From: a virus
Lineage: Duplodnaviria; Caudoviricetes
IMG/VR virus record: IMGVR_UViG_3300020388_000023
Span: 1-53,859 of that record
Reading direction: 5' to 3' (one strand)
Length of the DNA stretch: 53,859 nucleotides
The translations under genes were made by a program, and so were the position numbers. The notes under the pieces are model-generated. The model saw only the letters and a program-made list of their open reading frames with translations, was not told the origin of the DNA and searched no databases. The first letter of the stretch is position 1. Each line of letters starts with the position of its first letter. Of the stretch, positions 1,149 to 40,140 are shown one piece after another.

Positions 1149-1614
1149 TTTCTTCATTATTTAAGTGTTGATCTCTTTCTTCGTGTTCCCAAATACCATC
1201 TACGTTAAATTCATGCCAATGTACACGGCCTTCTAATATAGCGTTTTTAATATTTTTCTGATGTCCGTTTAAATTTGAATTACCACTTTTTACTTCTATA
1301 AAATGTACAGAACATTTTTTCTTACTTCCTCTATTTGCAAATGCAATGTAATCAATTGGTTTTCCAAAAAATTGTACGTCTTTGGGATCTACTGGAAAGT
1401 CTTCCATGAATGGAACATAATGTTCGATTGTTTTTCCAAAACTTACTGCTCTTGATCTTGAATATGCGTCTTCACGAATTCTTTTTTCTTCTTTGGTTTT
1501 CCATTTTGCTAAATAAGATTCAGCTTTTCGTTGTGCTATTTTATCATGTGAAATGTAAATGTAAGCTGCAAAACCTAAAGCACATATTGTAATTGTAATT
1601 AATATTGATATCAT
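1141..1614 (-). CDS. PD-(D/E)XK endonuclease (Holliday-junction-resolvase-like) with N-terminal transmembrane anchor
   Basis: Hydrophobic N-terminus ILITITICALGFAAYIYI, SRAVSFGKTIEH, FFGKPIDYIAF...HFIEVKSG. Confidence 0.75.
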   Translation of the reverse strand: MISILITITICALGFAAYIYISHDKIAQRKAESYLAKWKTKEEKRIREDAYSRSRAVSFGKTIEHYVPFMEDFPVDPKDVQFFGKPIDYIAFANRGSKKKCSVHFIEVKSGNSNLNGHQKNIKNAILEGRVHWHEFNVDGIWEHEERDQHLNNEENE

Positions 1615-2673: not shown

Positions 2674-3162
2674 TTATTCTGTGTATATTGATGAATTTCT
2701 GTCGGCTTCCCAACATTCTACTTTTACTACTTTTACTCTACCACCACCTGTTAAGGCTAAACGTTCGTTAAATTTATCATAAACTAATTTAGCACAAGAT
2801 TCGGCTCCCATTTTATCCATAACTCTTAAAGATAAAGTGCCTAATTCTTCCATCATTTGGAATGATTCTAATTGTGGGTCATCTTTTTCTATTAAACATG
2901 TATGGTCCCACATATAATTCATCCAATCTTTTAAACCATTACCTGGTGTTGGTTCTGCGTCTGTTGATTTGAACCCACCATAATCCATAATCCAATTCAT
3001 TTCGTCTAATTGGTTTTCTTCTAATGGTTCGTGAGATTCAAACCATACTTTAAATTTTAAAGCATATCCATGAAGTAACTCACAATGTGAATGTGCAGCT
3101 TTATGTTGTCTTAAGGCTACAGAATAATTATCAAATAATTTGGTTGATTGGTATTTTGCCAT
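2674..3162 (-). CDS. queD: 6-carboxy-5,6,7,8-tetrahydropterin synthase QueD-like (T-fold)
   Basis: HCELLHGY, WIMDYGG, WDHT, GAES, VECWE motifs; cluster context. Confidence 0.88.
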   Translation of the reverse strand: MAKYQSTKLFDNYSVALRQHKAAHSHCELLHGYALKFKVWFESHEPLEENQLDEMNWIMDYGGFKSTDAEPTPGNGLKDWMNYMWDHTCLIEKDDPQLESFQMMEELGTLSLRVMDKMGAESCAKLVYDKFNERLALTGGGRVKVVKVECWEADRNSSIYTE

Positions 3163-3376: not shown

Positions 3377-3548
3377 AACTTACTTCTTTTATTTCATCAC
3401 AAAAATAGAATTTATGATCTTTTTTTAATATTGTATCACAATGCCATAAAATTTTTAAAGGAGTTAAATCTACTCCTTTTTTAAAATGATGTGTTTTTAT
3501 TTTTCGTTTAACTACGAACATTTTACTATTATAGTGTACGTATTCCAT
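3360..3548 (-). CDS. Hypothetical protein
   Basis: 62-aa ORF, TAATG-coupled to the thioesterase gene. Confidence 0.6.
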   Translation of the reverse strand: MEYVHYNSKMFVVKRKIKTHHFKKGVDLTPLKILWHCDTILKKDHKFYFCDEIKEVSYEETN

Positions 3549-3931
3549 TAACTGTATTTTAGTCTTACTCTTTCTGAGATAGGGAGTGAATCGCCTTGTT
3601 CATCTATTCGTACAAACTTTATTTTAGTAGACAAAATAACTTTTTGGGCTCCATTGTATACACTGTGGGATCTAGCTTCCATATTTAAAGTTACACTAGT
3701 GTTACCTATTTTGTCTACACTTGCATATATTTTAATTAAAGATCCTTCTTTTGCGGGTCTTTTAAAAATACATTTGTCTATAGCTACTGTAACTACTCTT
3801 GGGGTATCACAAACTTGGGATGCATAAGCTGCTGCTGATGCATCTATCCAAGCTAGTAACTTTCCTCCAAACAGATTTGAATGAAATCCTAAATCTGATT
3901 TTTTTACTGGGTGTGTTGTAATTAATTCCAT
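3548..3931 (-). CDS. Acyl-CoA thioesterase (HotDog fold, YciA-like)
   Basis: DLGFHSNLFGGKLLAWID, VVTVAID..F..P, GNTS, FVRIDEQG. Likely start is ATG at 3931, TAATG-coupled to nrdA. Confidence 0.85.
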   Translation of the reverse strand: MELITTHPVKKSDLGFHSNLFGGKLLAWIDASAAAYASQVCDTPRVVTVAIDKCIFKRPAKEGSLIKIYASVDKIGNTSVTLNMEARSHSVYNGAQKVILSTKIKFVRIDEQGDSLPISERVRLKYS

Positions 3932-5643
3932 TATCCGTCGCAACTTACACAATCAACTGTTCTACTTCCTAAATCACCTTTTATTACTGAATCTGTTCGT
4001 AAGTAATACAGTGTTTTTACTCCTAACTTCCATGCTTCTAAATGAACTTGATTAATCCATTTTGGTGAGTCGGTTGGTGCAAAAGCTAAATTAAGTGATT
4101 GTGTTTGGTCTATATATTTTTGTCTAACTGCCGCTTGTTGAACTAATGCTAGTTGATTTGTTTCAGCAAATGTTAAAAATACTTCTTTGTCTTCTTCAGG
4201 TAAAATTTCATTTGACAAATGTTGAACTGAACCACCATCTACTAAAATTTGATCCCAAACTTTTTCTGTATTAAATCCTCTTTCTGTAAGTAATTTTTCA
4301 AGTTCTTTGTTTTTAACAATAAATGTACCTTTTGCACCATTAAATGTGTAAACATTTGCTGGTTGTGGTTCAATCCCCGCAGAACATCCTGAAATGCGAC
4401 TGTTTGAAACAGTAGGCGCAATTGCCATTACGTGAGTGTTTCTCATACCTGTTCCTTTACACCACAGCGGCTCTCCATATTCTACAGCTAATTTTCTTGA
4501 TGCTGCTTCAGCTTCCATTTTAACTTTAGACATTATTGTGTGTGTCCAAGCTGTTGAGGCAATTGATGTAAATGGTAAATTTTTCTTTTGTAAAAATGTA
4601 TGCCACCCCATTACACCTAATCCTAATGCACGACCTTTTTTAGCGTGATTGTGAGTACGTCTCATTGCTTCTTTTCCGTTGGTTTTGTCAATAAATTCTT
4701 GCATTACACCATCCAAAAAGTAAGTGGCAATTTCAACCACATCTGTGTCTTTCCATTCATCATATTTTGCTAAATTTAATGAACTTAAACAACATATAAA
4801 TGAATGTTCTTCATCTGTGTGTAATGTTATCTCAGTACAAATATTTGTCATTGAAACATGAAGATTATTCATCATATACGCAAGAGGATTGTCTTTATTG
4901 ACATTGTCTTCAAACATAATGTAAGGTTCTCCTGTTTCCATTCTTGATTTAAGAATTTCTAACCAAATTGCCATTGCATCTTGATCTCTGTCATTTAATT
5001 TACGCATAAATGAATCATCTACAACTACACATTGATGTAAATTTAAACATTGACGATTTGGATCGCCTTTTGGTCTTCGAATTTGTAAGAATTCTTGGAT
5101 GTCTGGATGATTAACATTTAAGTTAACAGATGCTGCTCCTCTACGAACATTACCTTGGTTGGTAGCAATAATTGAAGAATCGTAAATTTTACACCAAGGC
5201 ACTACACCTTCAGACTTACCATTTCCTGTGATTTCTTCTCCTCTTGGTCTAATTCTAGAAACAGAAACACCAACACCCCCACCTGAAGCTGTTAATTTCA
5301 TTAATTCAGCATTAGTTAAGCCAATTCCTCTAACAGAATCTGGAGTGTCTACACCAAAACATGAAATAGGTAAACCTCTGTCTGTTCCTGTGTTTGACAA
5401 TACAGGTGAGGCTAAACCAATCCAACCATTCCAAATATATTTGAAAAATTTAGATTCTAAATCAAGTCTATTTAATCTTATTGCAACTGCGTGTGCTACA
5501 CGTTTGTATGCCTTTCTTGGTGTTTCTCCTGGTAAAAGATATCCTTTTGAAATTGTAGACAATGCTACTTCATCCATAAAATCGGGAAAATCTTTACCTC
5601 TCTCCCATTGAGAGTAATCTGCTACTAAACTGTTATTATCCAT
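3931..5643 (-). CDS. nrdA: Class I ribonucleotide reductase alpha subunit (short, no ATP cone)
   Basis: LPISCF, GGGVG, RRGA, TNICTE (catalytic NxCxE), CCLSS, AIAPT, KTLYY, C-terminal CVSC. Confidence 0.95.
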   Translation of the reverse strand: MDNNSLVADYSQWERGKDFPDFMDEVALSTISKGYLLPGETPRKAYKRVAHAVAIRLNRLDLESKFFKYIWNGWIGLASPVLSNTGTDRGLPISCFGVDTPDSVRGIGLTNAELMKLTASGGGVGVSVSRIRPRGEEITGNGKSEGVVPWCKIYDSSIIATNQGNVRRGAASVNLNVNHPDIQEFLQIRRPKGDPNRQCLNLHQCVVVDDSFMRKLNDRDQDAMAIWLEILKSRMETGEPYIMFEDNVNKDNPLAYMMNNLHVSMTNICTEITLHTDEEHSFICCLSSLNLAKYDEWKDTDVVEIATYFLDGVMQEFIDKTNGKEAMRRTHNHAKKGRALGLGVMGWHTFLQKKNLPFTSIASTAWTHTIMSKVKMEAEAASRKLAVEYGEPLWCKGTGMRNTHVMAIAPTVSNSRISGCSAGIEPQPANVYTFNGAKGTFIVKNKELEKLLTERGFNTEKVWDQILVDGGSVQHLSNEILPEEDKEVFLTFAETNQLALVQQAAVRQKYIDQTQSLNLAFAPTDSPKWINQVHLEAWKLGVKTLYYLRTDSVIKGDLGSRTVDCVSCDG

Positions 5644-6704: not shown

Positions 6705-6734
6705 AAAAATGAAGGCCTTTTGAGCCTTCTTTTT
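6705..6734 (-). terminator. Intrinsic terminator after the helicase gene (possibly bidirectional)
   Basis: GAAGGC-N7-GCCTTC stem flanked by A and T tracts. Confidence 0.65.
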
Positions 6735-6764: not shown

Positions 6765-8120
6765 CTAAGAAGTAAAATTAAAAGCATTTCCAGCATTTTG
6801 CAAATTTCTTCTGTCTCTTTGTGAAAAACCTCCGGGTGTAGAGGGAGAATTATCTTGGTCAGAATTTCCTGATCTTCTGTTTGTAACCTCTATTTTACCA
6901 ATCGCGGCATCCATTGTGGAATTAAAAGTCATACCGTCAGCGCCATATCTATTCTTCATAATATGCCAACGACCTGTTCCGTTTTCTTTGTCTTCATGAT
7001 TTCTAGATAAAGACATTGCAAAATCTGTAATCATCATTTTAGAATAGCTTTCTGCCATACGATCTCCTTGGATAATGTCTTCTCTTGCACCAGTTCTGTT
7101 AACTTGAGATGCTGTCCAAATTGGTAATTTCATTTGAGTTGCTAAACCTCTTAATCCAGTGTAAATGTCATCGAGTTTATCTCTTTTTTCTTTACTTGAT
7201 TTAGATGTTAAAAGATCAGCATAATCTACAATTACTAAGTCAGGATTAATACCTTGTTGGATACAATTTTCTAGATGTGCATGAATTGTATTTACTGTAG
7301 CTTGTCCTGCTGGGTATTCTCTAATGTAAAGACCACCTCTTAAACCTAATAATCTTTCTTCTACTATGTCTTTATTGTCAGGTAAATCTCCTACAGGTAT
7401 TTCTGTAAAATTAGCATCATATCTTCTACCAACATATTTTTCACCTAATTCTAAAGTATAGTGGATTACTGTGTATCCTAATTTGACTGCTTGTGCACCA
7501 ATAGCTACTAAAGCCCATGATTTACCACCACCAGGACCACCTGCTATCATTCCTAAATCTCCTCTTCCTAAACCACCTAATAGTAATGTATTAATAGCAG
7601 GCCATGGTGTTTCTATTGTAGATCTACTTTCTGCTCTATATCTGTCTTCTATTTCAGCAATATATTCATGACCTAAATCACGTTCAACACCTGCTTTAAG
7701 TGCTTTGTCAATTAAATTACGAATGTCATCATAATCACCCAATTCTAATAAATCTACAGATCTAATTAAAGCATTTTTTAGTGTTTGATTTTTACAGAAG
7801 TCAAGAAAAGTATCTTTAATATATTCAAGATCTTTTACTTGTGATGATTTGTATGTTTCTTTTAATTGTTCTTTTACAGCAACTGCTTGGACTTCATTTT
7901 GAATTCCTTCAACTTCAACCTTAAACACCTCCATTGTAGGTATAGTATGATATTCATTAAAATAAGTAAGTGTTTTACGAACAATCCATTTACTTGCGTC
8001 AGAATCAAAATAATCAGGAGACACAATGTCTGATGACTGTTGTAGGAAATCCCTATCCGTTACCAACGCAGCTAATGCTTTTGTTTGAAACGGGTGACCA
8101 TATTGTGTGAGTTTATTCAT
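6765..8120 (-). CDS. DnaB-family replicative helicase (T4 gp41-like)
   Basis: Walker A GGPGGGKS, YTLEL, IVDYADLL, WTASQVNR, MKNRYG. Confidence 0.93.
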   Translation of the reverse strand: MNKLTQYGHPFQTKALAALVTDRDFLQQSSDIVSPDYFDSDASKWIVRKTLTYFNEYHTIPTMEVFKVEVEGIQNEVQAVAVKEQLKETYKSSQVKDLEYIKDTFLDFCKNQTLKNALIRSVDLLELGDYDDIRNLIDKALKAGVERDLGHEYIAEIEDRYRAESRSTIETPWPAINTLLLGGLGRGDLGMIAGGPGGGKSWALVAIGAQAVKLGYTVIHYTLELGEKYVGRRYDANFTEIPVGDLPDNKDIVEERLLGLRGGLYIREYPAGQATVNTIHAHLENCIQQGINPDLVIVDYADLLTSKSSKEKRDKLDDIYTGLRGLATQMKLPIWTASQVNRTGAREDIIQGDRMAESYSKMMITDFAMSLSRNHEDKENGTGRWHIMKNRYGADGMTFNSTMDAAIGKIEVTNRRSGNSDQDNSPSTPGGFSQRDRRNLQNAGNAFNFTS

Positions 8121-9144
8121 GTGTTGATTGGGCGTAACTATTTAATTTTACAAAATGTTGTGTTAACCATGCATCAGGAATTTGCAAAGCATTTCCCATA
8201 CAATCGTTATTATACATTATAATAAAATCATTTCGGGAGAGCAAATCTATTGGACGACTTATCATTTCACGAATTTGTCGTTTTAATTCTCCTGAAATTG
8301 GTGGATTTTTCAAATCCATTATCTTTTCATTTATTTCTAATTGATGCTCCGACGCCACAATTCTGTCATGCATAGGTTCTTCCCCTTCTAAAGCCTCTTG
8401 AACGATGGAATCTAAATCCAAGATTTTTTCGGTAATAATGTCAGGAACAATTTTGGGTAATTTTTTAGGACCTAATCCTTTAATTCCCTCAATATTGTCT
8501 GACTTATCTCCCATTAGAACTTTATACATTAAGAAATTGTGAGCCGGTACACCATAATCCTTCATTACTAAATCGGGTGTGTAGAATTTTTTCTTAATAG
8601 GACTCCATACTGTAACACGTTCATTTACTAATTGAAGAAAATCTTGGTCTGCTGACATGATTGTTACCTCTTTTTCTAGTAAATTATTTGTAATGTACGC
8701 TATGGTGTCATCAGCTTCAATATTATCTATTTGAATGACATTAATAGGAAGAACCTTTAAATATTGGATTAGACGTTCTATTTGGCTTTTTTGTGAAGCA
8801 TGTTCTTCTTCATAATTTTTCCAAGCATCCCACCTTGTCATACGTTTACCAGGTTTTCTGTTGTTCTTATAACTTGGTAGGATTTTTCTACGTCTGGTGC
8901 TTCCACCTTTTCCATCAAATGCAATTACAACCCTAGTAGGGTTAACTTCCCTTATGGAAAGTGCTAGAGATTTTAAAAATCCCATTACACCCCCTATAGG
9001 AATTCCATTGTCATTTAACATTCCATTTACAGAAAAGTTCCTAAGAAAAAGGTTTAATCCATCGATTATTAATACTCTTGAATTAGGGTCTGTAGTGTCT
9101 ACTTCCTTAACATCATTTAAAATGTCAAATATTGATTCTGCCAT
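8113..9144 (-). CDS. 5'-3' exonuclease / flap endonuclease (T4 RNase H-like)
   Basis: IIDGLN, AFDG, YKNNR, EADD, SADQDF, GDKSDNIEGIKGLGPK (helix-3-turn-helix). Confidence 0.93.
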   Translation of the reverse strand: MAESIFDILNDVKEVDTTDPNSRVLIIDGLNLFLRNFSVNGMLNDNGIPIGGVMGFLKSLALSIREVNPTRVVIAFDGKGGSTRRRKILPSYKNNRKPGKRMTRWDAWKNYEEEHASQKSQIERLIQYLKVLPINVIQIDNIEADDTIAYITNNLLEKEVTIMSADQDFLQLVNERVTVWSPIKKKFYTPDLVMKDYGVPAHNFLMYKVLMGDKSDNIEGIKGLGPKKLPKIVPDIITEKILDLDSIVQEALEGEEPMHDRIVASEHQLEINEKIMDLKNPPISGELKRQIREMISRPIDLLSRNDFIIMYNNDCMGNALQIPDAWLTQHFVKLNSYAQSTHE

Positions 9145-10283
9145 TATATTCCAGTTTCGTCGATTTGTACGTCAGGATCCATTACTTGTTCATCTTCATG
9201 TTGATATTTCATAACATATGAATCGCAAGTGTCTTTATACATTTGTTCTTTTACTTCTGGTCTTTCCTCACACAATTGTTGTAATTCTTTACCATAAAAT
9301 GTAATAATTTCTCCTGTTGATGTGTCTGTGTATTTACAGATAGGTCCTGACTGTTTAACTACTTTGTAGTTTTTCATCAATTTTAACCATCCACCATAAT
9401 CGTCAATACCTTGTCTGTAAAATACATTGTATCGAATTTTACGGTTTGGGGGTCCCATTCTGTTTTTTACAACAATAGCTTCAACCTCAGAACCAACAAT
9501 TTCTTCAACACCGTTGATTTTTTCCTTTAATTTACCTACTTGTTTAAGACGTAATCTTACTGAAGCATGGAATTGTAAGGCTTTACCACCTGATGTTGTG
9601 TATTGATCTGCAAATGGCATTGCGCCCATCTTTTGTCTTAGTTGGTTTGTAAATACTAATAGTATTTTTTCTTTACCAATTAAATTAGTGATTTTACGCA
9701 TTGCTTTTGACAAGATGATTGCCTTATGTGTGGCATAACCATCTTTTTCAAAATCAGCTGCTGATTCAATTTTAGTTGTTGCTGCTGCAACTGAATCTAC
9801 TACAATTGTGACTAATTTGTCTGGGTTGTTTTCTCTAACTTGTGAAATTACATTTTCAATTGCATCAAAAATGTCTTCTACTGTTTCAAGAGGTAAATAA
9901 ACCATTTTTTCAACGTCAACTCCAATTGCTTGCAGGAATTGTGCATTTAAAGAAGATTCAGTGTCAATGTAAATTGCAATACCACCCTTCTTTTGGGTGT
10001 TTGCTATAATATGAGATGCTAACAGGGACTTACCACTCTGTTCTAATCCAGTTATCTCTACAATTTTTGAAACTGGAAAACCACCATTAGGGCGATTAGA
10101 AATAGCCAAATCTAATACTGTGGATCCTGTGGACACCCAATCGTCTACATCTGTTGGTGAGTCTTCACTACCATCTAGAAAGTAAGCGACTTTGTGGTGG
10201 GTCTTGCTAAACTTTTTATTAAGAGATTCTGCAAGAAGCCCTGTTAATTCATCTCGATTTGAGTCTGTTTTTTTCTTAGCCAT
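9144..10283 (-). CDS. RecA/UvsX-like recombinase
   Basis: STGS..LD, EITGLEQSGKS, YIDTE, VVDSVAA, FTNQLR, SGGKALQFHASVRL, KNR. Confidence 0.95.
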   Translation of the reverse strand: MAKKKTDSNRDELTGLLAESLNKKFSKTHHKVAYFLDGSEDSPTDVDDWVSTGSTVLDLAISNRPNGGFPVSKIVEITGLEQSGKSLLASHIIANTQKKGGIAIYIDTESSLNAQFLQAIGVDVEKMVYLPLETVEDIFDAIENVISQVRENNPDKLVTIVVDSVAAATTKIESAADFEKDGYATHKAIILSKAMRKITNLIGKEKILLVFTNQLRQKMGAMPFADQYTTSGGKALQFHASVRLRLKQVGKLKEKINGVEEIVGSEVEAIVVKNRMGPPNRKIRYNVFYRQGIDDYGGWLKLMKNYKVVKQSGPICKYTDTSTGEIITFYGKELQQLCEERPEVKEQMYKDTCDSYVMKYQHEDEQVMDPDVQIDETGI

Positions 10284-11035
10284 TAATCAAAAAGATTATC
10301 TAATTTTTTATTGATGTCTACTTTACCTTGTGGTTGAACTTTTTCAGTTTCTTTACCTCCGTCTTCATCTGAAGGCTTTAACCATCCTTGTAAAATGTCT
10401 TTCATTTCGTCAAATTCATATCTTTTATATAAACCAACAATGTCTTTTTGGTTTTCTAAAAGTGATTCAACTGTAGTAGCTTCTGCTTCTAATGGCGTTT
10501 GGTTAGGCTTAACACGAACTGTTGTTGTGTTGAACATTTTACCAGTTTCTTTAGCAGGAATTACTTCAACAGTAATGTCACGACCACTTGCAACATCTGT
10601 AATGTCACCATAATCTTCATCAGCCATTACACCAAGTAATTCTTGATATACCATTTTACCGAATTCCCAAAAACGTACACCTTTATCTTCTTCACCACGT
10701 ACATAAACTGGGGCAAATACACGAAGTTTAGGGAATAATTTCTTAGCTAATTCCATGTTGGTTTGATCACCTGACTTACGTAATTTTGTAGCAAATTCCA
10801 AAATTGGATCTGTTGTGTCGAAATTAGACAATGCTAACATACGAGGTTTACCAATTCCAAAGTAGAAATATAATTCACTAAATGGGAAGTCTTTGTTGTG
10901 CTTGTAAGGTACAATGCGCACTTGTGATTTTGTACCTTCTTTCGGCTTCCAGAAATTTAAAGAGTAATCTGTTTTCTTACCACCACCTTTGTTGTTTAGA
11001 CTTGCTAAACGATTTTTGATTTCATCTAAATTCAT
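10283..11035 (-). CDS. Single-stranded DNA-binding protein (T4 gp32-like)
   Basis: FWKPK...VRIVP, GVRFWEFGK, YGDITD...GRD, acidic C-terminus ending LFD; directly upstream of the recombinase. Confidence 0.8.
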   Translation of the reverse strand: MNLDEIKNRLASLNNKGGGKKTDYSLNFWKPKEGTKSQVRIVPYKHNKDFPFSELYFYFGIGKPRMLALSNFDTTDPILEFATKLRKSGDQTNMELAKKLFPKLRVFAPVYVRGEEDKGVRFWEFGKMVYQELLGVMADEDYGDITDVASGRDITVEVIPAKETGKMFNTTTVRVKPNQTPLEAEATTVESLLENQKDIVGLYKRYEFDEMKDILQGWLKPSDEDGGKETEKVQPQGKVDINKKLDNLFD

Positions 11036-11129: not shown

Positions 11130-11525
11130 TTAAGAAATGTTAATTATTTCTCTTACTTTAGTGTCGATGCGTTTATAACCGTCGGTTTGTATTAACAGAA
11201 TACAATTTCTATAATCATTCCAATTTACAGCATACGACTTGTCTAAATAACCATTATTCAAACTCTTTATCAATTCATTTAAAGCATTTATTGTGTAAAG
11301 AGTATTTGTTTGTTTTTTTCTGTGTACTAATATTGTGTTACTTACTAAAAATTCACTACTTGAATTACCCATATCAACGTTATATGTAAGCATAACTTTT
11401 TCCCCATCCAAGCTTTCTAGGACAAAAATTTTATTAAAAAGTATAGAATAAGAAGATTTAATTCTGTCAACTGTATTTTCAATATTTTCTTCGGGAACGA
11501 ATGTGCAATATAAGCGATTATTCAT
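11130..11525 (-). CDS. Hypothetical protein
   Basis: 131-aa ORF (HRKKQTNTLYTINALN) preceded by an ATATTTAT motif at 11549-11556. Confidence 0.75.
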   Translation of the reverse strand: MNNRLYCTFVPEENIENTVDRIKSSYSILFNKIFVLESLDGEKVMLTYNVDMGNSSSEFLVSNTILVHRKKQTNTLYTINALNELIKSLNNGYLDKSYAVNWNDYRNCILLIQTDGYKRIDTKVREIINIS

Positions 11526-11564: not shown

Positions 11565-12854
11565 TTACAAAGCCTCCAACACATCATAATTTTTACCTAC
11601 TTTAATTTTGATTGGGTGTTTTTTAGACACTATTTCCTTAATTTTTACAAGTGTTTCTTTACCATCTTCCTTACTAAAATCAAATAAAAACGAATCATAC
11701 ACATATAATATTAAGGTAGATTTTTTGTCTTTTAAAAACTCATCTAATTCCTTAATTACCTGCATATTTGTTTCTGTTTCATATGATTGTATTAAATAAT
11801 TAAACAATTGTTGGCGGGTTAGTTTTTCATGGTTTTTCTTCCAAATTCGTTTACCTAACGTAGTTTCAACATAACCAATACGATTAAACATTTCCCAATT
11901 TAAGTCTATATATTCTTGTGCTTTACTAAAATACGGATGGTGTAGGTTTTCTTTTCTAATTCCCCCATACATCTGCTTGAATGTATGTTCTTTAGGATTG
12001 ATGTCAGGGTCGTTATAAACTTCGCTTAATTCTTCATAAACGTCGTCTTTAGTAAAAGAAAAGCCCACCATGTCCGCAATCAGTCGTGGATGATAACCAC
12101 TATAGTCTATTTCTATTAGGAGGTCATTTTTAGGTTCAAATGACTTTCGCTCTCCCGTTTTGTGTTTTAAACCCATAAAACTTAATCCGTTAAAATTATT
12201 TACAGGCCTTCCGGTTGTTGTGTATGGATTATACCATCCGTATATATTATTGTCTTTAGTTGAATGTTTGTCGCATGTTAATTTAAAGTATGTTTCAAAA
12301 TGATCGTTAATCTTGATTGAATTTTTTTCTATGTGGTATAAACTTGGTAATATTATGTCGTTGTATAATGGATCTACATTCTCGCTAAGTAGTGGAAGTA
12401 ACGCATTTTTTCTTAACTCACACCGCTCGAAGTGTTTACCAATAGGAATCATTTTATTTACCTTTATTTGTGGGAATTTACGGTAATAATGATTGTGTGC
12501 TTGTGTGTTAAACTTATCGTCGAATGGTAGGTTGGTTTGTTTGTAATGTAAGTGTTGTATATCCGTATGAGGGTTCGTGGGGTTGATATGTCGAGCTGCT
12601 TTTGAATCTTTTGTCAAAAATGACTTATTATTTACCCACTGCCAAACTTCATCTTTATCTAAATTAATACACTCTGGATGATTTAAGGCTAACATAAAGC
12701 CTTTACGATCTAATGAAGAAACGTATATAGCAATAACTTCTGCAAGGGCAGGGTGAGTATTGTCATTTCCTAAGACATAGTCAATATAACACTTGTCTGT
12801 AAGAATATCGCACATTTCTGTGAATTGGTCCGGTGTTTCGATAAGATAGAACAT
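11565..12854 (-). CDS. Family A DNA-polymerase-like protein, small, with the thumb deleted
   Basis: TTTGRP, motif A IEIDYSGYHPRL, motif B K...F...YG, GYVETTLGKR, NYLIQS, motif C LYVYDSFLF. Confidence 0.8.
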   Translation of the reverse strand: MFYLIETPDQFTEMCDILTDKCYIDYVLGNDNTHPALAEVIAIYVSSLDRKGFMLALNHPECINLDKDEVWQWVNNKSFLTKDSKAARHINPTNPHTDIQHLHYKQTNLPFDDKFNTQAHNHYYRKFPQIKVNKMIPIGKHFERCELRKNALLPLLSENVDPLYNDIILPSLYHIEKNSIKINDHFETYFKLTCDKHSTKDNNIYGWYNPYTTTGRPVNNFNGLSFMGLKHKTGERKSFEPKNDLLIEIDYSGYHPRLIADMVGFSFTKDDVYEELSEVYNDPDINPKEHTFKQMYGGIRKENLHHPYFSKAQEYIDLNWEMFNRIGYVETTLGKRIWKKNHEKLTRQQLFNYLIQSYETETNMQVIKELDEFLKDKKSTLILYVYDSFLFDFSKEDGKETLVKIKEIVSKKHPIKIKVGKNYDVLEAL

Positions 12855-13743: not shown

Positions 13744-16700
13744 TTAGAAGCTTCTAAGAACATCTTCTCTCATCCATCCTATTTTTATATCATTTACCCC
13801 ACCTTGAATAGTTTCATTATTAATAGTATACTGAGTATTTTTATTTGGGTCTTTTACATCATTCCAATCATCATTATTACTAGATTGTTCTTTAAAGTTA
13901 ATGTTATCTTCAAACTTTATTAAAAACCATAACCATCGTATAGGTTTTTTATAAGACCATAATATCCCTTCAGGGATCCAATAATAATCACCTTTTTCAA
14001 AATCTTTTATAGTATAAAACTTTTTACCAAAATTATTAGAAGCATTACGATTTGTTATATTAGGGTCATAATAGGTGGGAGTGTCTTTATTTATAACTAC
14101 TTGTACAGGATATTTTGAGTCTTTGTATACTACTTCAAAATTTTTACCCTCATAATCAGTTTCGGTTTTCCATTGTAATACACTCTTATCATCATCCGTT
14201 AATTGTTGATCTCCTAAACCTGATTTTATTTTAATGTTACTTTCTACAGGGGGTGCTTGTTTTTTATTTAAAACTATCCCTAACTTAGTACCTATAGGGT
14301 TATTAGTAACTGCTCTTATTATATTATCATTAAATTCTGTTTCATAGTTTAAGATAGGTTCAGTTCTTACATTAGTGGGTGAATTAACTTTTAAGAATAT
14401 TGAATTTCCTTCAGATAAAGAAGTAATGTTGGGATCTGCTGCTATTTGGGAAGAATTTGTGTTTTTATCAGTAAATTCATAGTAGGAAACATCTTTTGTT
14501 ATACCTGCTGTGTTAGCTTTAATACCGAGTTTTAAATCATCCCATTCTTCCTTTTTAGGTAAATCTAATAACATCATTTGTCCTGAAAAATCAGTTGTCC
14601 AATCTTGCCCTGCTGTGATTTTTTGACCTTCGGTCATTACAACAAATGCTATGTCGTCTTCTTGATATCCTTTAGGAAGAAACTTGTTGTCTATTTTAAA
14701 TACATTTCCTATTACTAAACCACTTATACCATCTATTTGAGCATTAAATTTTAAAGGTATTACAGTAGATTTACTAATATTAGAGGGTGATTTTTTTCTA
14801 AACCCTTTATATATTTTATCGTCTTTTTTACTTTCACTATATCTTAATTTTAATGAAATAATAGATGATTCTATATTTTGTATGTATCTTTTAGCAGTGG
14901 ATATTGCTAAGTTTTCAGTACTTCTACCATTATTTAAGGTTCCTGGATTATATTCCCCCCTTAACATTTCTTTTCTATGATTGTACAAAAAGGATAACAT
15001 TACTTGTAATTTTTTTAAGTCTGTATCGTATTGGTTACCTTTTTTATTTATATTTGCTCCATTTTCTTCTTCTTCTTCTTTAAAAAATCTATATTTTATA
15101 TTTCTATTAAATGCTGCAAATGATACTGCATCTAAATCACCTATTGAATTAGGTGATTGAGCAGCAATTGCAACTGTAGAACTTAATTTACTGTCTATTG
15201 TAGTGTTATAATTAAAATCTCTTACTATTGATTCTTTGCCGTGAGTTTTAAATTTATATAAATCTTCTGGTTGTAGACTTGTATTTAATTGTATGTCTAT
15301 TATTCTTAGAATATTTCCCCTAGTTTTTTCTGTGTGTATAATAAAATTATGAGTACCTACACATGCATTATTTATATCTTTTTCCCATATAGTTTGTAAG
15401 AATGTAAATAAATTAAAATCTTCATTTATTTCATCTCCTTTATATCTTGTCTTTTTATATAATTCTACTAAATAATCTAGACCAATAAAAATATCACTTA
15501 TATTTCTCCCGTTGTCTACTTCTACTATTCGTTGTGCATTTTTAGCATTAGTTCTATCTTGTTCATATTTAGAGTTTCTATTTAAATTACCACTAAATTT
15601 ATCTAATTGATGAGGAAGTAAACATATAAAGGGGTCTACACTCATATCCATTAAGTCAGATATATTTACTTTTATAAATTCTGAGTATCCTTGTGTAGTA
15701 AACCTACCATAACTATCTAAGTATGAGTCTATTGGAATTTCAATATTGGCATCATTTTTAAAGGTATATTTAGAATATTGTAAAGGCAATTTAGGTCCTA
15801 TATTAGGTGCTTCATCTAACCATGTAATTTCAGTAAGAGGAGATATTTTTGCTCCTTCTTGGTATGTATTAAATACTAATTTATTTAAAAATATAGATAA
15901 AAGTTCCCATTTTATATAATATTCAGATGATTTAACACCTGTTCTGTCAACTTCTTCATCTCCTTTTAATCCGAGAGCTTCACCTTTATATATAATGTAG
16001 GGATCTAATATTTCTTTAAGATATACAACACCTCTTTTTGTTTTATCATTTAATTTATTACCATCTTTTAAATTTTCTTGTTCTTCTAAAAAATCTATAT
16101 CTTCAGAAAATTGTTTTTTTCCTAATTCTGGAACTATTTTATCATTTACTAATTGAATAAATTTTGCAAGATTTGGGGTAAATAAAGAATTATTTTCTAT
16201 ATTAAGAAAATCATATTTTACATTACTTTGAAAATTTTCTTTATATTCAATTACATCTATAATTTCTGCCCATTCTCTTAGCATTTTTAATATGAATTCA
16301 AGATTATCTACTTCAACATTAGTATTACCTACACCTTCAAGAGTAAAACCACTACTTTTACCTTTTAAACCTTCTAATGTTTCACCCATTGCAGCTAATT
16401 CAGTAGTACAATCATACCCCCCATCTGGTCTAGAAGTAATTTCAAAATTTTTAACATACCCAACAAAACCATCATAATTACCCCCTGCTGCTTTAATTCT
16501 TGTGTGGATAATTTTATTTATATCATTTATAGAAGAATTTTGATCAAACCATTCCCATAAGTAGGGAAAATAACTTTCTCTTTTACCTAAATTACTTATG
16601 TAAGGATCCCAGCCCCATTCTAAAAGAATAGGCATACCTGGTCTCATGTAAAGAGCATCTAAAACATCAAGTTGTCGTCTATTGTGGCATACAAAATTAA

Positions 16701-17268
16701 TTTTTGCATCTCTTAAAGAACCATAGGCGGTTTTTGTTCTAATTTCAGCATCTATGATTCCAGGCATTGGTACTATACCAAAACCGTCTGATGCATCTGA
16801 ACGAATGTAAGGATCACCATAGGCTGAACCATATTGGTTAGATTTACTTCCTCCTTTAGTAAATTGTCTTGTTCCTCTACCTCTAGGGATAATTTTAATA
16901 GGGTTTTCAGGAGTACCTTTATCGTTTCCTCTATTATTTATAAAATCTACATCTTTAGCAGGAATACCTCCTTCAAGCATATAACGGATAGCTAATCCTT
17001 CTCCTTTTAAATTTCCTCCTTCTTTTTCATTAGCATCTAATAAAGTATTATCTTCTTTTAAATCTACACCTGAAGACATTCTAATAACACATTGTCTTGA
17101 AGTTGTATTTGTATAAAAAGCACCAGCATCAAGAGTGGGGGCCTCACCTATAAAATCTTTGACTTTAGGTCTACCTAATAGACGACCTGAATTTTGATTT
17201 AGGGCTGCTTCTCTTATTTTTAATTGATTAAAAACAAAATCTCGAAAGGTTTCTTTAAATATAGACAT
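13744..17268 (-). CDS. Putative baseplate hub protein with a C-terminal SH3b-like domain
   Basis: 1174 aa, follows the LysM-like and tube-initiator genes; ILLEWGW, DGISGLVIGNVFKI..WTT hub-like segments; NVRTEP...W...GW at the C-terminus. Confidence 0.5.
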   Translation of the reverse strand: MSIFKETFRDFVFNQLKIREAALNQNSGRLLGRPKVKDFIGEAPTLDAGAFYTNTTSRQCVIRMSSGVDLKEDNTLLDANEKEGGNLKGEGLAIRYMLEGGIPAKDVDFINNRGNDKGTPENPIKIIPRGRGTRQFTKGGSKSNQYGSAYGDPYIRSDASDGFGIVPMPGIIDAEIRTKTAYGSLRDAKINFVCHNRRQLDVLDALYMRPGMPILLEWGWDPYISNLGKRESYFPYLWEWFDQNSSINDINKIIHTRIKAAGGNYDGFVGYVKNFEITSRPDGGYDCTTELAAMGETLEGLKGKSSGFTLEGVGNTNVEVDNLEFILKMLREWAEIIDVIEYKENFQSNVKYDFLNIENNSLFTPNLAKFIQLVNDKIVPELGKKQFSEDIDFLEEQENLKDGNKLNDKTKRGVVYLKEILDPYIIYKGEALGLKGDEEVDRTGVKSSEYYIKWELLSIFLNKLVFNTYQEGAKISPLTEITWLDEAPNIGPKLPLQYSKYTFKNDANIEIPIDSYLDSYGRFTTQGYSEFIKVNISDLMDMSVDPFICLLPHQLDKFSGNLNRNSKYEQDRTNAKNAQRIVEVDNGRNISDIFIGLDYLVELYKKTRYKGDEINEDFNLFTFLQTIWEKDINNACVGTHNFIIHTEKTRGNILRIIDIQLNTSLQPEDLYKFKTHGKESIVRDFNYNTTIDSKLSSTVAIAAQSPNSIGDLDAVSFAAFNRNIKYRFFKEEEEENGANINKKGNQYDTDLKKLQVMLSFLYNHRKEMLRGEYNPGTLNNGRSTENLAISTAKRYIQNIESSIISLKLRYSESKKDDKIYKGFRKKSPSNISKSTVIPLKFNAQIDGISGLVIGNVFKIDNKFLPKGYQEDDIAFVVMTEGQKITAGQDWTTDFSGQMMLLDLPKKEEWDDLKLGIKANTAGITKDVSYYEFTDKNTNSSQIAADPNITSLSEGNSIFLKVNSPTNVRTEPILNYETEFNDNIIRAVTNNPIGTKLGIVLNKKQAPPVESNIKIKSGLGDQQLTDDDKSVLQWKTETDYEGKNFEVVYKDSKYPVQVVINKDTPTYYDPNITNRNASNNFGKKFYTIKDFEKGDYYWIPEGILWSYKKPIRWLWFLIKFEDNINFKEQSSNNDDWNDVKDPNKNTQYTINNETIQGGVNDIKIGWMREDVLRSF

Positions 17269-23095: not shown

Positions 23096-25963
23096 TTATT
23101 CGAAAGTTGCTCCAGTAGGTAACACATTAAAATCAAGAACTATAAATTCAGCTGTTTTAGTTGGTTGTAAGAAAATAGCGCCTACTAATTGATTTCTATC
23201 TACTACATCTGCTGTGTTATTATTTTCATCCATTTGTACTCTAAATGAGAATAGTCCTTGTTTTTGTTGTACACCTTCTAAGTATGGGTTAACTATATTT
23301 AAGAATCTATTACGTGTTGCATTTGTGTTTTGTTCAAATACTAAGTATCTTGAAGAACTTGCAATAAATTTCTTAAGTGCAATTAATAATCTACGAACAT
23401 TAATTCTGTCTAATGCTGATGATCTTTCTTGAAGTGTCTTTTGACCCCAAATACAAACTCCAGTTTGTGGGAATGTTGCAATTGGGTTAATTTTAGCATT
23501 GTATAGAAGATCTCTTTCAGCTTGATTTAATCTCATTTTAGCTTCAATTACGTTTCCTAACACACCTCTATTTAAACCTGCAGGTGCAAACCATTCAGCT
23601 GCAATTGCATCTGAAGCAGCAATTGCTCCTGGAACTATTACTGATGGCGGTACTAATACTGGCTTATTTGCGGCAGTATCAAGTACTTTAACCCATGGAT
23701 AATACACAGCAGCGTAGTTTGTATCTAAACCACTTGCATCGTTTATAGCTGCGTTTACTGAACTATTATATTGGGTTAAATCCATTACAAAGAATGCATC
23801 TCCTCTTTCTTCACACATATCAATACCCGCATTTGTTACTAATGGATGTAAAGATTTAATTACACCTGGTAATGCCAACATATTAATATCGTATTCATCT
23901 TGATTTGATAGAATGTCAATTGCTTTTTTATACCCTTTATATCCAGCAGCTGATGTTGTTTTTAAATCAAATCCATATAAATTAGTACCACCTGTATATG
24001 TAGCAGCTAATGAGCTTTCGTTTCCTACAAATATTGGTTGATGAGGTGCAACACCATCATCTCCACCTTGGAAGCAAACTGTAAATTTAAGTTGTTCTGC
24101 TGTTGGTCCATTTGCTCCTGTTGGATCAATTGATGCACTTAATGATCCTACCCATAATCCTGAATTTGTATGTCCCGAATAATTTTCAACGTTAAAGTCT
24201 CCTGATACATTGGCTTCTTCAGATGGGGTGGAATATAATGGTTTTAAGAAGTTTTTGTTGTCTGCTCTTTTATCATCAAATTTCCATCCTAAAAATCCTC
24301 TACTACTATAATTCCCACCCACATTTTGGGCACCTTCATATGATGCTGATGGGAATGAAACTCCTGTAAATATTGTAGATGGTATTGGATTAGACACTGC
24401 TTTAAATCCTTTAGGAGATAATTTAGGTGAAAGTGCTTTATTTGTTACTGCATCTGATACTGACACTCTAATATAATTTGAAACATTTGGATAATCTCCT
24501 AAAATTTCTAATTTACCTAATGTATCATTATAATCTGGATATCTATCACCTATTACTCTTGAAATAAATTGTGGTGAGTCTGGATCTAAATTACAGTTAT
24601 TATATTGTTCTAAAATTGTTGGCGACTTATCTTTATCTCCATAAGCTCTTACTAATACTGAGAATGTTGAATATTGTTCTTCACCATCTATATCATTTGG
24701 TTCTCTTAAATTAGCAATTGAAATTTTGTAATCTGTGTTACATGCTGTTCCATGTCCTATAGAATGGAATCTAAATAATTCTTTATTACTTGCTTTATCT
24801 GATTTAATAAATGGTGTTGAAGCATATGAATATCCTTCTGTTTTACCTAATCCAGTATATGCTAAATCAGCTGATTGAGTAACTATTATAAATTCTCTGT
24901 CTGAATGAACACCTGAATATCCTGATACGTCAGCTCCTTCTGTAGAAACAGCAACTGAAGCTGTTGTTGAAGTAGTAAATTGGTTAATTACATTTACTGT
25001 ATTACCTGCTTCTGCGGCTGTTACTGTTACTACATTTCCGTCTACTGTTGATGAAAACGCACTAATATTATTAATAGCTGTATGCATTGCTGTTGCTAAA
25101 ACAGATCCTGAAATTTCTCCATCTGTGTCTACAGATGTTATGTCTGCTTGAACTAATGATCCTGATAAGCCTGTATTTGCAGCTACAGCATCATGGTCAC
25201 TTACGAATACTACTGTATATTGATTTTCATCTGAATCTTCTAATACTACTGCTCTTCCTTGAGCTGCCGTACTTTCAATACTAGCTGTTTGGAAGTTACT
25301 GTCAGCAAATGTAATTGTTGACACTTCTTTTGTTGCAGCTGCTACTATATCTTTTTGTAGATCTTTAAAATTTAAATAACCATATCCTCCTACATCATTA
25401 AATGTAACAGCACTGTCTTTACTATTATTAGGATCAGTACCTATTTGTTTAAATAAATAATTACTGTTAGCTGGGTTAGAGGATGCTGCGAATGTTTTAG
25501 AAGTTACACCTGTACCATTTAAAACTAAACTAAAGTCAGAACCAAAACTAGAATCGTCATTACCACTAATAGAAGATAATTCTAATTTAGGTGTAGATAA
25601 ATTTTTAGAAGGAGCAATTACACCTACTAATACATTACCATCAGAACCCGACACTGCTAAACCTACTAATGATTTATTAGCTGCTTCAAATGTATAACCA
25701 CCACCTGCTAACACTCTTGTTACGGTAACTGATCCGGCATTACGTAAATATTCACGAACTGTTTGGGGTACAAAAGTTTCTGAACTAAAGCTACCAAACA
25801 TTCTTTCATATTCTGCAAAGCTTTTTACTACTGTTGGTACAAATGCAGGTCCTTTTACTGTAGGTCCGACAATTGCTGCGCCTATTGCGCCTACTCCCTG
25901 AGGGAGAAATGATTGGTCGTTTTCTCTTGTAAAAACACCTGGTGAAATTATTTGTTCTGCCAT
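23096..25963 (-). CDS. Contractile tail sheath protein (T4 gp18-like)
   Basis: SPGVFTREND, GPTVKGP, YYPWV, WFAPAGLNRG, INPI, WGQKTL, RINVRRLL, PTKTAEFI. Confidence 0.96.
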   Translation of the reverse strand: MAEQIISPGVFTRENDQSFLPQGVGAIGAAIVGPTVKGPAFVPTVVKSFAEYERMFGSFSSETFVPQTVREYLRNAGSVTVTRVLAGGGYTFEAANKSLVGLAVSGSDGNVLVGVIAPSKNLSTPKLELSSISGNDDSSFGSDFSLVLNGTGVTSKTFAASSNPANSNYLFKQIGTDPNNSKDSAVTFNDVGGYGYLNFKDLQKDIVAAATKEVSTITFADSNFQTASIESTAAQGRAVVLEDSDENQYTVVFVSDHDAVAANTGLSGSLVQADITSVDTDGEISGSVLATAMHTAINNISAFSSTVDGNVVTVTAAEAGNTVNVINQFTTSTTASVAVSTEGADVSGYSGVHSDREFIIVTQSADLAYTGLGKTEGYSYASTPFIKSDKASNKELFRFHSIGHGTACNTDYKISIANLREPNDIDGEEQYSTFSVLVRAYGDKDKSPTILEQYNNCNLDPDSPQFISRVIGDRYPDYNDTLGKLEILGDYPNVSNYIRVSVSDAVTNKALSPKLSPKGFKAVSNPIPSTIFTGVSFPSASYEGAQNVGGNYSSRGFLGWKFDDKRADNKNFLKPLYSTPSEEANVSGDFNVENYSGHTNSGLWVGSLSASIDPTGANGPTAEQLKFTVCFQGGDDGVAPHQPIFVGNESSLAATYTGGTNLYGFDLKTTSAAGYKGYKKAIDILSNQDEYDINMLALPGVIKSLHPLVTNAGIDMCEERGDAFFVMDLTQYNSSVNAAINDASGLDTNYAAVYYPWVKVLDTAANKPVLVPPSVIVPGAIAASDAIAAEWFAPAGLNRGVLGNVIEAKMRLNQAERDLLYNAKINPIATFPQTGVCIWGQKTLQERSSALDRINVRRLLIALKKFIASSSRYLVFEQNTNATRNRFLNIVNPYLEGVQQKQGLFSFRVQMDENNNTADVVDRNQLVGAIFLQPTKTAEFIVLDFNVLPTGATFE

Positions 25964-40082: not shown

Positions 40083-40140
40083 AATAATTTAAACAGCCTA
40101 ATATTTCCTTAGAAATATTAAGCCGTTTTTAAAAATTATT
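40083..40140 (-). other. Long intergenic RNA hairpin (17-bp core with G-U pairs)
   Basis: Minus strand AAACGGCTTAATATTTC-TAAG-GAAATATTAGGCTGTTT. Confidence 0.65.

Follow-up and report, generated by a model that had tools for sequence, protein, structure and literature searches.

A thumb-truncated family A DNA polymerase with a histidine at the steric gate heads a conserved phage replication operon

We analysed a 53,859-nucleotide stretch of the virus record IMGVR_UViG_3300020388_000023 (Duplodnaviria; Caudoviricetes), referred to here as the window, which represents about 29% of the genome. A polymerase gene on its minus strand is the first of a conserved operon and is followed by the genes for p131, a gp32-like single-strand DNA-binding protein (SSB), a RecA/UvsX recombinase, a flap endonuclease and a DnaB helicase (Table 1). 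The intergenic gaps in this operon are 26-94 nt, and a consensus scan detected no minus-strand terminator-like site between the polymerase gene and the end of the helicase gene. A terminator-like hairpin lies after the helicase gene and may mark the end of the operon; this hairpin is weak, since five such sites were found in the region where 3.3 were expected. The promoter scan was uninformative (36 sites, 38.8 expected). Contigs from RNA libraries of two studies matched stretches of the operon, the polymerase gene among them, a weak indication of expression because they come without strand or level and DNA carry-over is possible. Next to none of the sequence words were present in X21 and X22, RNA runs from the likely source samples.

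Table 1. Features of the polymerase gene and its operon in the window
Feature	Coordinates	Strand	Basis
divPolA1-family DNA polymerase, 429 aa	11565..12854	-	ORF, Pfam DNA_pol_A, Immuto gene 1 homology, AF2 model
Vestigial 3'-5' exonuclease-like domain, about residues 1-135	12450..12854	-	superposes on Bst from 300 and Taq from 295
Thumb remnant, residues 184-203 (DHFETYFKLTCDKHSTKDNN)	12246..12305	-	alignments, AF2 model, conserved length
Motif 1 (IYGWYNPYTTTGRPVNNFNG), R216 = Klenow R668	12186..12245	-	hhalign; R216 and P217 73/73
Motif A (EIDYSGYHPRLI), residues 248-259, catalytic D250, H255 at steric gate (codon 12090-12092)	12078..12113	-	hhalign; D250 73/73, H255 72/73
Motif B / O-helix (DINPKEHTFKQMYG), residues 284-297, K288, F292, Y296	11964..12005	-	hhalign; K288 73/73, F292 69/73, Y296 70/73
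Motif C (LYVYDSFLFD), residues 383-392, catalytic D387, Y386 for H881, S388 for E883	11679..11708	-	hhalign; D387 73/73
p131, orphan 131-aa protein	11130..11525	-	52% identity to Immuto gene 2, 42% to Mel-JY01
gp32-like single-strand DNA-binding protein	10283..11035	-	PF08804 8.6e-8, phrog_1192 1.2e-19
RecA/UvsX-like recombinase	9144..10283	-	PF00154 1.1e-53, phrog_97 5e-71
5'-3' exonuclease / flap endonuclease, homologue of Pol I N-terminal domain	8113..9144	-	PF02739 7.4e-34, PF01367 2.5e-8
DnaB-like replicative helicase	6765..8120	-	PF03796 6e-15, phrog_19 3.4e-76
Terminator-like hairpin after helicase gene, possible operon end	6711..6729	-	consensus scan only

The polymerase matched Pfam DNA_pol_A (PF00476) with 36.9 bits against a cut-off of 34.3 (E 2.8e-9), over residues 309-419 only, and a six-frame genome search gave 37.4 bits for the same gene. 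In a tblastn search it aligned over 98% of its length, at 32.6% identity (E 1e-60), with gene 1 of Flavobacterium phage Immuto, whose host, Flavobacterium sp. LMO8, can be cultured. Gene order around the polymerase matches that in Immuto, Mel-JY01 and LR756508.1, and the window holds SSB, RecA, 5'-3' exonuclease, DnaB and RNR genes in the same order as Immuto. The product is therefore almost certainly a member of the divPolA1 family. It shares with the Immuto prototype full-length homology, the truncated thumb, the palm catalytic residues and the downstream replication genes, and as a further member at 33% identity it differs in nothing essential. The first-pass annotation had implied high novelty; divPolA1 is real and conserved but not new, having been named and modelled by Yutin et al. 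(2024, Virol J 21:200; PMC11348598). The text of that paper describes the family as having a truncated thumb and an inactive exonuclease domain without catalytic residues, and as always standing beside a regular DNA polymerase, which accompanies it in its 14 phages. A literature search on the family name returned that paper and its preprint only, and no biochemistry for any divPolA1 member. The fixed histidine gate, the lost equivalents of R754 and E883, the constant linkage to p131 and the extent of the family in metagenomes are additions to the text of Yutin et al. 2024, although its figures or supplements may show some of them.

The family is abundant, with hundreds of sequence clusters from marine and freshwater viromes: 1094 representatives were found at E<=1e-3 and 412 at E<=1e-30, nearly all of 400-460 aa, and 594 of 600 candidate stretches from IMG/VR were confirmed as divPolA1. 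To our knowledge no smaller natural Klenow-type polymerase core has been described. Conservation was assessed on 73 diverse homologues with 29-53% identity.

The first reading of the gene had proposed a thumb-less PolA with about 23 residues where Pol I carries its thumb. Exact string positions place IEKNSIKIN at residues 175-183 and IYGWYNPYTTTGRP at residues 204-217; the gap between the blocks is 20 residues rather than about 23. In a profile search of PDB sequences the family block IEKNGIKID aligned to Klenow IERNGVKID, ending at Pol I D548, a short stretch that is weak when taken alone (i-E about 220), and the next aligned block started at Pol I 647-649. By these two alignments, Pol I residues 549-658 (110 residues) lie opposite residues 184-207 (24 residues) of divPolA1. 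The AF2 model of the 429-aa protein (pLDDT 95.7, pTM 0.92) agrees with this deletion, as its thumb region contains just two 4-residue helices. So does the superposition by VIA-align, in which 394-405 of the 429 residues fit the 577-residue Bst or 538-residue Taq large fragments (Z 26-27, rmsd 3.2-4.1). The fold check, run against Bst and Taq, thus bore out the absence of a normal thumb. Foldseek returned Pol I enzymes and Pol theta as best matches (E about 1e-17 to 1e-16). The stretch from N183 to Y208 measures 18-27 residues in 72 of the 73 homologues and 8 in the remaining one. The protein is thus a genuine, conserved thumb-truncated PolA; judged from these sequences, the loss of the thumb is neither chance nor decay.

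The modelled protein has a Klenow-type fold with an exonuclease-like domain, palm and fingers, in which the thumb subdomain is cut to about 20 residues. It shares the two-domain fold of Klenow, Bst and Taq, with motifs 1, A, B and C in register, but is short of about 86 thumb residues and has no exonuclease family match. Its fingers are also trimmed relative to Pol I: the Lys of motif B and the Asp of motif C lie 99 residues apart here and 124 apart there.

The 3'-5' exonuclease family PF01612 had no match in the window, in line with the earlier remark that intact exonuclease motifs are missing. At the N-terminus the sequence is YLIET; residues 4 (Ile) and 6 (Glu) may take the places of the Asp and Glu of Exo I. 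No sequence alignment with a known exonuclease extends over this domain, and hhalign against Klenow aligned residues 198-412 only, leaving it outside. Across the 73 homologues E6, H34, Y44, H59 and E/D61 are near-invariant, and position 61 is always acidic (E in 58, D in 15).

The active-site register was taken from hhalign of the divPolA1 family profile against E. coli Klenow (probability 93.9, E 1.5e-7). It pairs R216 with R668, D250 with D705, H255 with E710, R257 with R712, D284 with R754, K288 with K758, F292 with F762, Y296 with Y766, Y386 with H881, D387 with D882 and S388 with E883. On this sequence alignment motifs A, B and C, with both catalytic Asp residues and the O-helix Lys and Tyr, stand in the Klenow register, and the three motif strings are exactly those first written down. 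R216, D250, K288, Q356 and D387 are invariant (73/73); random decay of the catalytic Asp residues, which would have refuted the first reading, was not seen. Compared with Klenow, E710 is replaced by His, R754 by a non-basic residue, H881 by Tyr and E883 by Ser or Ala. The upstream Arg of motif B is missing from most members: among the residues listed, position 284 is Y in 46, I in 8, R in 5 and D in 2, with 4 gaps, and Arg occurs in 5 of 73 members. Position 388 is S in 48, A in 24 and G in 1, and Y386 and D392 are each kept in 72 of 73. The absent Glu gate and O-helix Arg are residues typical of family A and are not criteria of membership.

R754 and E883 are important in Klenow. Replacement of their equivalents means that catalysis may differ from that of Pol I in unpredictable ways, and the loss of the R754, E883 and H881 equivalents could also be read as the mark of a catalytically dead replisome scaffold. 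We consider this extremely improbable. Both catalytic Asp residues, the O-helix Lys, the motif 1 Arg and the equivalent of Q849 are invariant in all 73 homologues, down to 29% identity, which is the pattern expected from purifying selection on an active site. From the conserved active-site residues and the large family, polymerase activity is likely.

The histidine gate raises a further possibility, that His together with the lost R754 equivalent relaxes or changes sugar selection and allows rNTP incorporation or RNA synthesis, one of the roles first suggested for the protein. H255 is kept in 72 of 73 homologues, the R754 position is non-basic in most members, and the gate is a point unaddressed in the searched text of Yutin et al. 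2024 (PMC11348598), from which the words steric, histidine and ribonucleotide are absent. However, a His side chain takes up no less room than Glu and would be expected to keep the 2' position blocked. The equivalents of F762 and Y766, which contribute to selecting the deoxy sugar, are also retained (69/73 and 70/73). The best structural neighbours are moreover DNA polymerases. Ribonucleotide synthesis is thus a distinctly improbable function.

Other polymerase matches were absent from the window; as it covers only part of the genome, a regular polymerase would lie outside it. All six complete or near-complete relatives encode a full-length PolA, PolB or DnaE besides divPolA1. Immuto has an additional 777-aa PolA (gene 71) with an exonuclease domain match, Mel-JY01 a PolB, and LR756508.1 a PolB and a DnaE, while three IMG/VR records at 100%, 94% and 100% completeness have a PolB, a PolB and a 780-aa PolA, respectively. 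A DnaG-like primase is likewise present in 6/6 (Immuto and 5/5 further relatives). The check for a separate replicative polymerase that the first-pass annotation had called for, run on these relatives, makes it very unlikely that divPolA1 is the sole polymerase of its phage.

We favour the reading that divPolA1 is an active, distributive, non-proofreading second polymerase for short-patch synthesis. As a whole this statement is evenly balanced between right and wrong; the short-patch auxiliary role taken by itself we would put at even or a shade below. The protein is a Klenow-like core consisting of a probably dead exonuclease-like domain, a palm with both Asp residues, trimmed fingers that keep the O-helix Lys, Phe and Tyr, and a thumb reduced from ~110 to ~24 residues. 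It would act as a template-dependent DNA polymerase, probably distributive because it has no thumb and probably error-tolerant because it has no proofreading. The homologue of the Pol I 5'-3' exonuclease is here a separate gene, three genes downstream of divPolA1, and the two proteins may together fill gaps after RNA primer removal, dividing the work of Pol I between two genes. DivPolA1 may also extend recombination intermediates formed by the neighbouring SSB and recombinase, while bulk replication would be carried out by the regular polymerase encoded elsewhere. In T4, T5 and T7 a flap nuclease and the phage's own replicase suffice for primer removal, so there is no obvious need for a dedicated gap-filling polymerase. 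If active, divPolA1 would show how far the Pol I scaffold can be pared down with DNA synthesis still possible, and enzyme engineers may be interested in such a compact core, in which a His naturally occupies the sugar gate.

The conserved context, which speaks for a function in replication, is equally compatible with divPolA1 being the polymerase of the replisome, and this counts against an auxiliary role. DivPolA1 might be the core replicase, with p131 and/or the helicase and SSB giving grip or processivity and the swapped regular polymerases acting as auxiliaries. It always heads the helicase-SSB-recombinase-nuclease operon. The regular polymerase varies (A, B or C family) and is found among chaperonin and nucleotide-metabolism genes, as seen in the Immuto layout and in the text of Yutin et al. 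2024 (PMC11348598), where the regular polymerases are placed in functionally mixed neighbourhoods and the conserved context is read as a role of divPolA1 in replication. Linkage to p131 is strict as well. p131 was found in 71 of 71 loci with at least 1.5 kb downstream of the polymerase, and all 29 loci that extend 6 kb or more downstream contain p131, SSB, flap endonuclease and DnaB. It is present in the same six phage records as full-length divPolA1 and is more conserved than the polymerase in 76 of 76 loci. This genomic linkage is strong, and it ties p131 to the replication operon as a whole no less than to the polymerase. The four of 80 loci in which p131 was absent are no real exceptions: L040 and L090 stop 13 and 84 nt past the polymerase gene, and L039 and L087 have an ORF running off the contig end, for an HNH endonuclease and an acidic protein, respectively.

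Longer p131 proteins (n=8, all single-sequence clusters) joined it to polymerase fragments (3) or to an SSB, an HNH endonuclease, a membrane protein, an ERCC4-like nuclease or an acidic protein (1 each). We rejected these as evidence of fusion and regard them as assembly or gene-call artefacts, since several junctions are truncated and the partner is whichever gene adjoins; this counts against a core replicase. A polymerase with no proofreading and almost no thumb also fits poorly with genomes of 155-190 kb, and every complete genome has a full-length polymerase, that of Immuto with an exonuclease domain match. A core replicase is accordingly unlikely.

The first-pass annotation had suggested that divPolA1 might borrow a thumb from the adjacent protein. 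p131 gave a confident AF2 model (pLDDT 92.2), for which Foldseek returned nothing at E<=0.001. In a wide VIA search the best Z was 6.1, for generic ferredoxin/ACT/RRM-like matches over residues 1-67, and no OB-fold protein was listed. Searching PDB sequences with a profile produced 0 matches at E<=10; among 45 members scanned against Pfam, no family recurred in more than two, and PHROGs gave none. A lead to GTP cyclohydrolase III was dropped, its ESM Atlas score (0.77) being below lead level. Complex prediction of divPolA1 with p131 scored 0.00 against a mark of 0.32, for which the tool's verdict was "no answer", a result neutral on binding. We consider it quite unlikely that the two form a two-subunit polymerase, in which p131 would replace the thumb or, via the His gate, add priming or a changed sugar or template preference, and that this pair, not the interchangeable regular polymerase, serves as the invariant replisome polymerase in a highly abundant group of large phages from aquatic habitats. 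Together the two proteins may explain how related phages can exchange a main polymerase of family A, B or C for one of another family with no change in the remaining replication operon.

Primer synthesis had also been suggested, and a precedent exists in CCPol-MP of staphylococcal SCCmec, a truncated family A polymerase whose ability to prime de novo comes from a small neighbouring protein (PMC7581432, PMC10061031, PMC10201439). DivPolA1 and p131 have a similar architecture, with a shortened PolA, a small protein next to it and a helicase in the operon, and according to the CCPol text a shorter last thumb helix is argued to aid initiation (PMC7581432). The details differ. In the text of the CCPol reports, CCPol is without most of the exonuclease domain and keeps the Glu gate equivalent to E710, and MP is an OB fold (PMC7581432, PMC10061031); divPolA1 retains a whole exonuclease-like domain. 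The N-terminal half of p131 is ferredoxin/ACT-like at generic scores (none above the best Z given above), shows no OB fold in structure searches and has no sequence or fold link to MP. The divPolA1 phages moreover have the DnaG-like primase already found in 6/6 relatives, which leaves a two-protein primase-polymerase improbable.

Protein priming, another of the specialised roles first listed, gained no support from the analysis. Modified-base handling, also on that list, would make divPolA1 an enzyme for copying or filling 7-deazaguanine-modified DNA. The window does contain QueC, QueD and a radical-SAM fragment, and fdPreQ1 is described as replacing all G in Immuto (PMC10516641). However, Mel-JY01 and LR756508.1 have divPolA1 and p131 without QueC, so that QueC is present in just two of four divPolA1 genomes and missing from the other two. 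Modification of the DpdA class occurs after synthesis and not through the polymerase. The text on the Immuto modification attributes it to DpdA-family DNA transglycosylases (PMC10516641). This reading is very improbable.

A comparable protein is divPolA2 of the barbaviruses. Both are divergent second PolA proteins beside a regular polymerase and without a normal thumb or exonuclease, as described in the text of Yutin et al. 2024 (PMC11348598); divPolA2, unlike divPolA1, begins with a globular domain of a novel type, sits in a variable gene neighbourhood and has structural neighbours that are RNA-polymerase-like.

The polymerase gene lies in an AT-rich record (53,859 bp, G+C ~30–35%) in which the - strand carries nearly all genes. 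In its 429-aa product, the Pfam DNA_pol_A profile matched only the C-terminal 110 residues (36.9 bits against a curated threshold of 34.3), and a single-sequence search of PDB sequences retrieved Taq polymerase only at E ~0.03. The protein was folded using an alignment of 73 diverse full-length homologues (29–53% identity), which gave a model with mean pLDDT 95.7, pTM 0.92 and no segments below 50. Foldseek matched this model to Pol I enzymes and Pol theta (E ~1e-17 to 1e-16), and VIA-align placed 394–405 of the 429 residues on the Bst (300–876, 577 residues) and Taq (295–832) large fragments (Z 26–27, rmsd 3.2–4.1). Given these matches and superpositions, the protein as modelled is a Klenow-type enzyme that is complete but reduced in size, with an N-terminal exonuclease-like domain and a polymerase domain.

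The family block IEKNGIKID aligns with Klenow IERNGVKID in the family profile, a short stretch that is weak alone, and the block that follows starts at Pol I 647–649 in profile alignments. Residues 549–658 of Pol I, spanning thumb helices H to I, lie opposite a stretch of the query that contains two four-residue helices and nothing more in the model. The missing thumb proposed in the first-pass annotation was therefore borne out by these alignments and by the AlphaFold-type model, 110 Pol I residues being reduced to 24 in the alignments. The motif strings quoted in that annotation are exact in the query; its blocks IEKNSIKIN and IYGWYN were right, but 20 residues separate them rather than ~23. 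The inter-block stretch is 18–27 residues long in 72/73 homologues. The fingers are also shorter than those of Klenow: by hhalign positions, 38 residues against 53 separate the motif A Asp from the motif B Lys, and 99 against 124 separate this Lys from the motif C Asp. Both the fold and the deletions are established.

Residues were placed in register with E. coli Klenow by hhalign, and conservation was counted over the 73 homologues. R216 (Klenow R668), D250 (D705), K288 (K758), Q356 (Q849) and D387 (D882) are present in 73/73, Y386 (H881) and D392, with no Klenow equivalent mapped, in 72/73, Y296 (Y766) in 70/73 and F292 (F762) in 69/73; R257 corresponds to R712. At S388 (E883) the family has Ser (48), Ala (24) or Gly (1). 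The two-metal centre is thus intact, and the O-helix Lys, Phe and Tyr are retained. As first reported, His replaces the Glu steric gate (H255 for E710, 72/73) and motif B lacks its upstream Arg: at D284 (R754) the listed residues are Tyr 46, Ile 8, Arg 5 and Asp 2, with 4 gaps. Random decay of the two catalytic Asp residues was looked for and not seen. Because the active-site residues and the short inter-block length are conserved across the 73 homologues, the unusual residues read, from sequence, as fixed family characters under purifying selection and not as random active-site decay. Use of dNTPs is expected, since His is no smaller than Glu and the F762 and Y766 equivalents, Phe and Tyr for deoxy-sugar selection, are kept. 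The same residues speak against incorporation of rNTPs, which is highly improbable; a specialist for modified bases is more improbable still and a dead scaffold barely credible, and all three readings have little support.

In the exonuclease-like domain, E6, H34, Y44 and H59 are near-invariant and residue 61 is always acidic (Glu 58, Asp 15). The conserved residues of this presumably dead domain could make up a rewired metal-binding site or else a surface for protein contacts.

Representatives at 50% identity numbered 1094 at E≤1e-3 and 412 at E≤1e-30, nearly all of 400–460 aa; a 90%-cluster search gave 711 proteins, and 594 of 600 candidate IMG/VR stretches were confirmed as family. A search of 50,697 phage records gave full-length matches only in four records of the Flavobacterium phage Immuto, in the Microcystis phage Mel-JY01 and in one 484-kb uncultured phage. 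The portions of Yutin et al. 2024 (Virol J 21:200, PMC11348598) available to us name this protein type divPolA1 and describe 14 phages of 155–190 kb, every one of which encodes a regular family A, B or C polymerase as well, with conserved replication genes downstream of divPolA1. They also describe AlphaFold2 models in which the palm catalytic residues are kept, the thumb is truncated and the catalytic Asp residues of the exonuclease are replaced; none of the terms "Okazaki", "ribonucleotide", "histidine" or "steric" appears in those portions. A literature search found the name in that paper and its preprint and in no further paper. The query is, by sequence, a further member of this known, sequence-defined family, the biochemistry of which is predicted only. 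The first-pass observation was confirmed, and its interpretation is supported in part.

A separate replicative polymerase and a primase, both of which the first-pass annotation suggested seeking, were found in relatives. Immuto encodes a PolA of 777 aa, which also matches an exonuclease domain, at 37.9–40.2 kb, Mel-JY01 a PolB within an 855-aa frame, and LR756508.1, a phage record also carrying divPolA1, has PolB and DnaE matches. Four of five large IMG/VR records examined likewise have one: those rated 100%, 94% and 100% complete carry PolB, PolB and a 780-aa PolA, respectively, and one 78% complete carries PolB; none was found in a 68%-complete fragment. A DnaG-like primase homologous to that of Immuto was present in 5/5 further genomes searched. 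Co-occurrence of divPolA1 with a regular polymerase and primase is thus established for the complete or near-complete relatives. No second polymerase match was found in the window, as expected of a record ~29% complete (CheckV).

Deletions of the thumb tip in Pol I reduce DNA affinity, processivity and frameshift fidelity, and we infer that the query alone would be a distributive, non-proofreading DNA polymerase. Short-patch synthesis is the role that would best fit such an enzyme and its gene neighbours. Together with the separately encoded 5'-3' exonuclease homologue, divPolA1 would fill RNA-primer gaps, as a Pol I split in two genes, and it may also extend recombination intermediates made by SSB and recombinase; bulk genome replication would fall to the regular polymerase. 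A dedicated maturation polymerase might ease exchange of the main polymerase between families in these phages. That divPolA1 is instead the replicase core is unlikely, although its constant replisome context and a remark in the available text of PMC11348598, that the regular polymerases occur in mixed context, favor it.

The operon itself is established. In the window divPolA1 is followed by p131 (a 131-aa protein), a gp32-like SSB, RecA/UvsX, a 5'-3' exonuclease/flap endonuclease and the DnaB helicase, and then by ribonucleotide reductase (RNR) and 7-deazaguanine synthesis genes; the gene order is common to the window, Immuto, Mel-JY01 and LR756508.1. The IMG/VR loci that extend 6 kb or more downstream all have p131, SSB, flap endonuclease and helicase (29/29 for each gene), and RecA of the window type was detected in only 6/29. 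In L049, the one locus checked, the gene separating SSB from the 5'-3' exonuclease encodes a distant member of the RecA family (PF00154, 9.4e-8). It seems that the operon retained its other genes as the recombinase diverged or was swapped. Segments of the operon, the polymerase gene among them, are covered by contigs from the RNA libraries of two studies, which is compatible with expression. A terminator-like hairpin just past the DnaB gene may mark where the transcription unit running from divPolA1 to DnaB terminates.

p131 lies downstream of the polymerase in 76/80 IMG/VR loci, and in 71/71 of those whose contigs run on for 1.5 kb or more; the four without it are contigs ending 13–860 nt past the polymerase gene, two with an inserted ORF. 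It is better conserved than the polymerase in 76/76 loci, the mean identities being 53% and 38%, respectively, over the 47 loci that have all five genes. Within the phage collection it is found in the six records with full-length divPolA1 and in no others. Homologues number at least 8000, the best 120 of these being at least 85% identical. Its model is confident (pLDDT 92.2), the N-terminal half being ferredoxin-like; the block HRKK...NTLYTINALN is invariant, and no known family was matched by sequence or fold (Pfam, PHROG, PDB sequences, fold searches). Since p131 is linked to the module as a whole, it is not assignable to the polymerase specifically. The architecture invites analogy with what is described of CCPol-MP, the staphylococcal pair in which a small adjacent protein gives a truncated family A polymerase de novo priming, but a DnaG-like primase is universal in the genomes searched and fold searches gave no OB-like match for p131, making a primase of this kind very unlikely. 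Still of interest are the His gate fixed in the family, the absent Arg and Glu, the exonuclease-domain residues that are conserved (E6, H34, H59 and E/D61) and the orphan p131.

Some loci vary around this gene pair. An HNH-type endonuclease ORF (P0391) between the polymerase gene and the usual place of p131 has the look of a homing endonuclease inserted between genes. In one sublineage a highly acidic ORF (~290–360 aa) directly follows divPolA1, and in L061, L084, L089 and L096 p131 is not adjacent but ~2.2–2.6 kb downstream of the polymerase.

Coordinates of features in the window and in IMG/VR loci
Feature	Record	Position	Strand
Radical-SAM fragment (7-deazaguanine synthesis)	window	2-325	-
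QueC (7-deazaguanine synthesis)	window	318-1157	-
Archaeal-Holliday-junction-resolvase-like endonuclease	window	1141-1614	-
QueD (7-deazaguanine synthesis)	window	2674-3162	-
4HBT-type thioesterase	window	3548-3952	-
Terminator-like hairpin	window	6711-6729	both
p131	window	11130-11525	-
divPolA1-type polymerase	window	11565-12854	-
Exonuclease-like domain, residues 1-135	window	12450-12854	-
Large ORF, 1174 aa	window	13744-17268	-
Tail sheath	window	23096-25963	
Large ORF, 1339 aa	window	28258-32277	-
Head-tail adaptor	window	35539-36687	
Large ORF, 927 aa	window	36769-39552	-
Large ORF, 1012 aa	window	40139-43177	-
Major head protein	window	47829-49502	
HNH-type endonuclease ORF, P0391	L039	10336-10932	
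Highly acidic ORF	L087	7024-7881	
Highly acidic ORF	L007	11418-12494	

The four large ORFs, which lie among the head and tail genes, matched no PHROG at the cut-offs applied. Immuto carries 7-deazaguanine synthesis genes as in the window, and the available text of PMC10516641 reports that all G in its DNA is replaced by fdPreQ1; the DNA of the window's phage is probably also modified. No dpdA was found among the window proteins scanned, the record being a fragment. The thioesterase and the resolvase-like endonuclease are encoded between RNR and the Que genes, and in Immuto such an endonuclease follows RNR too.
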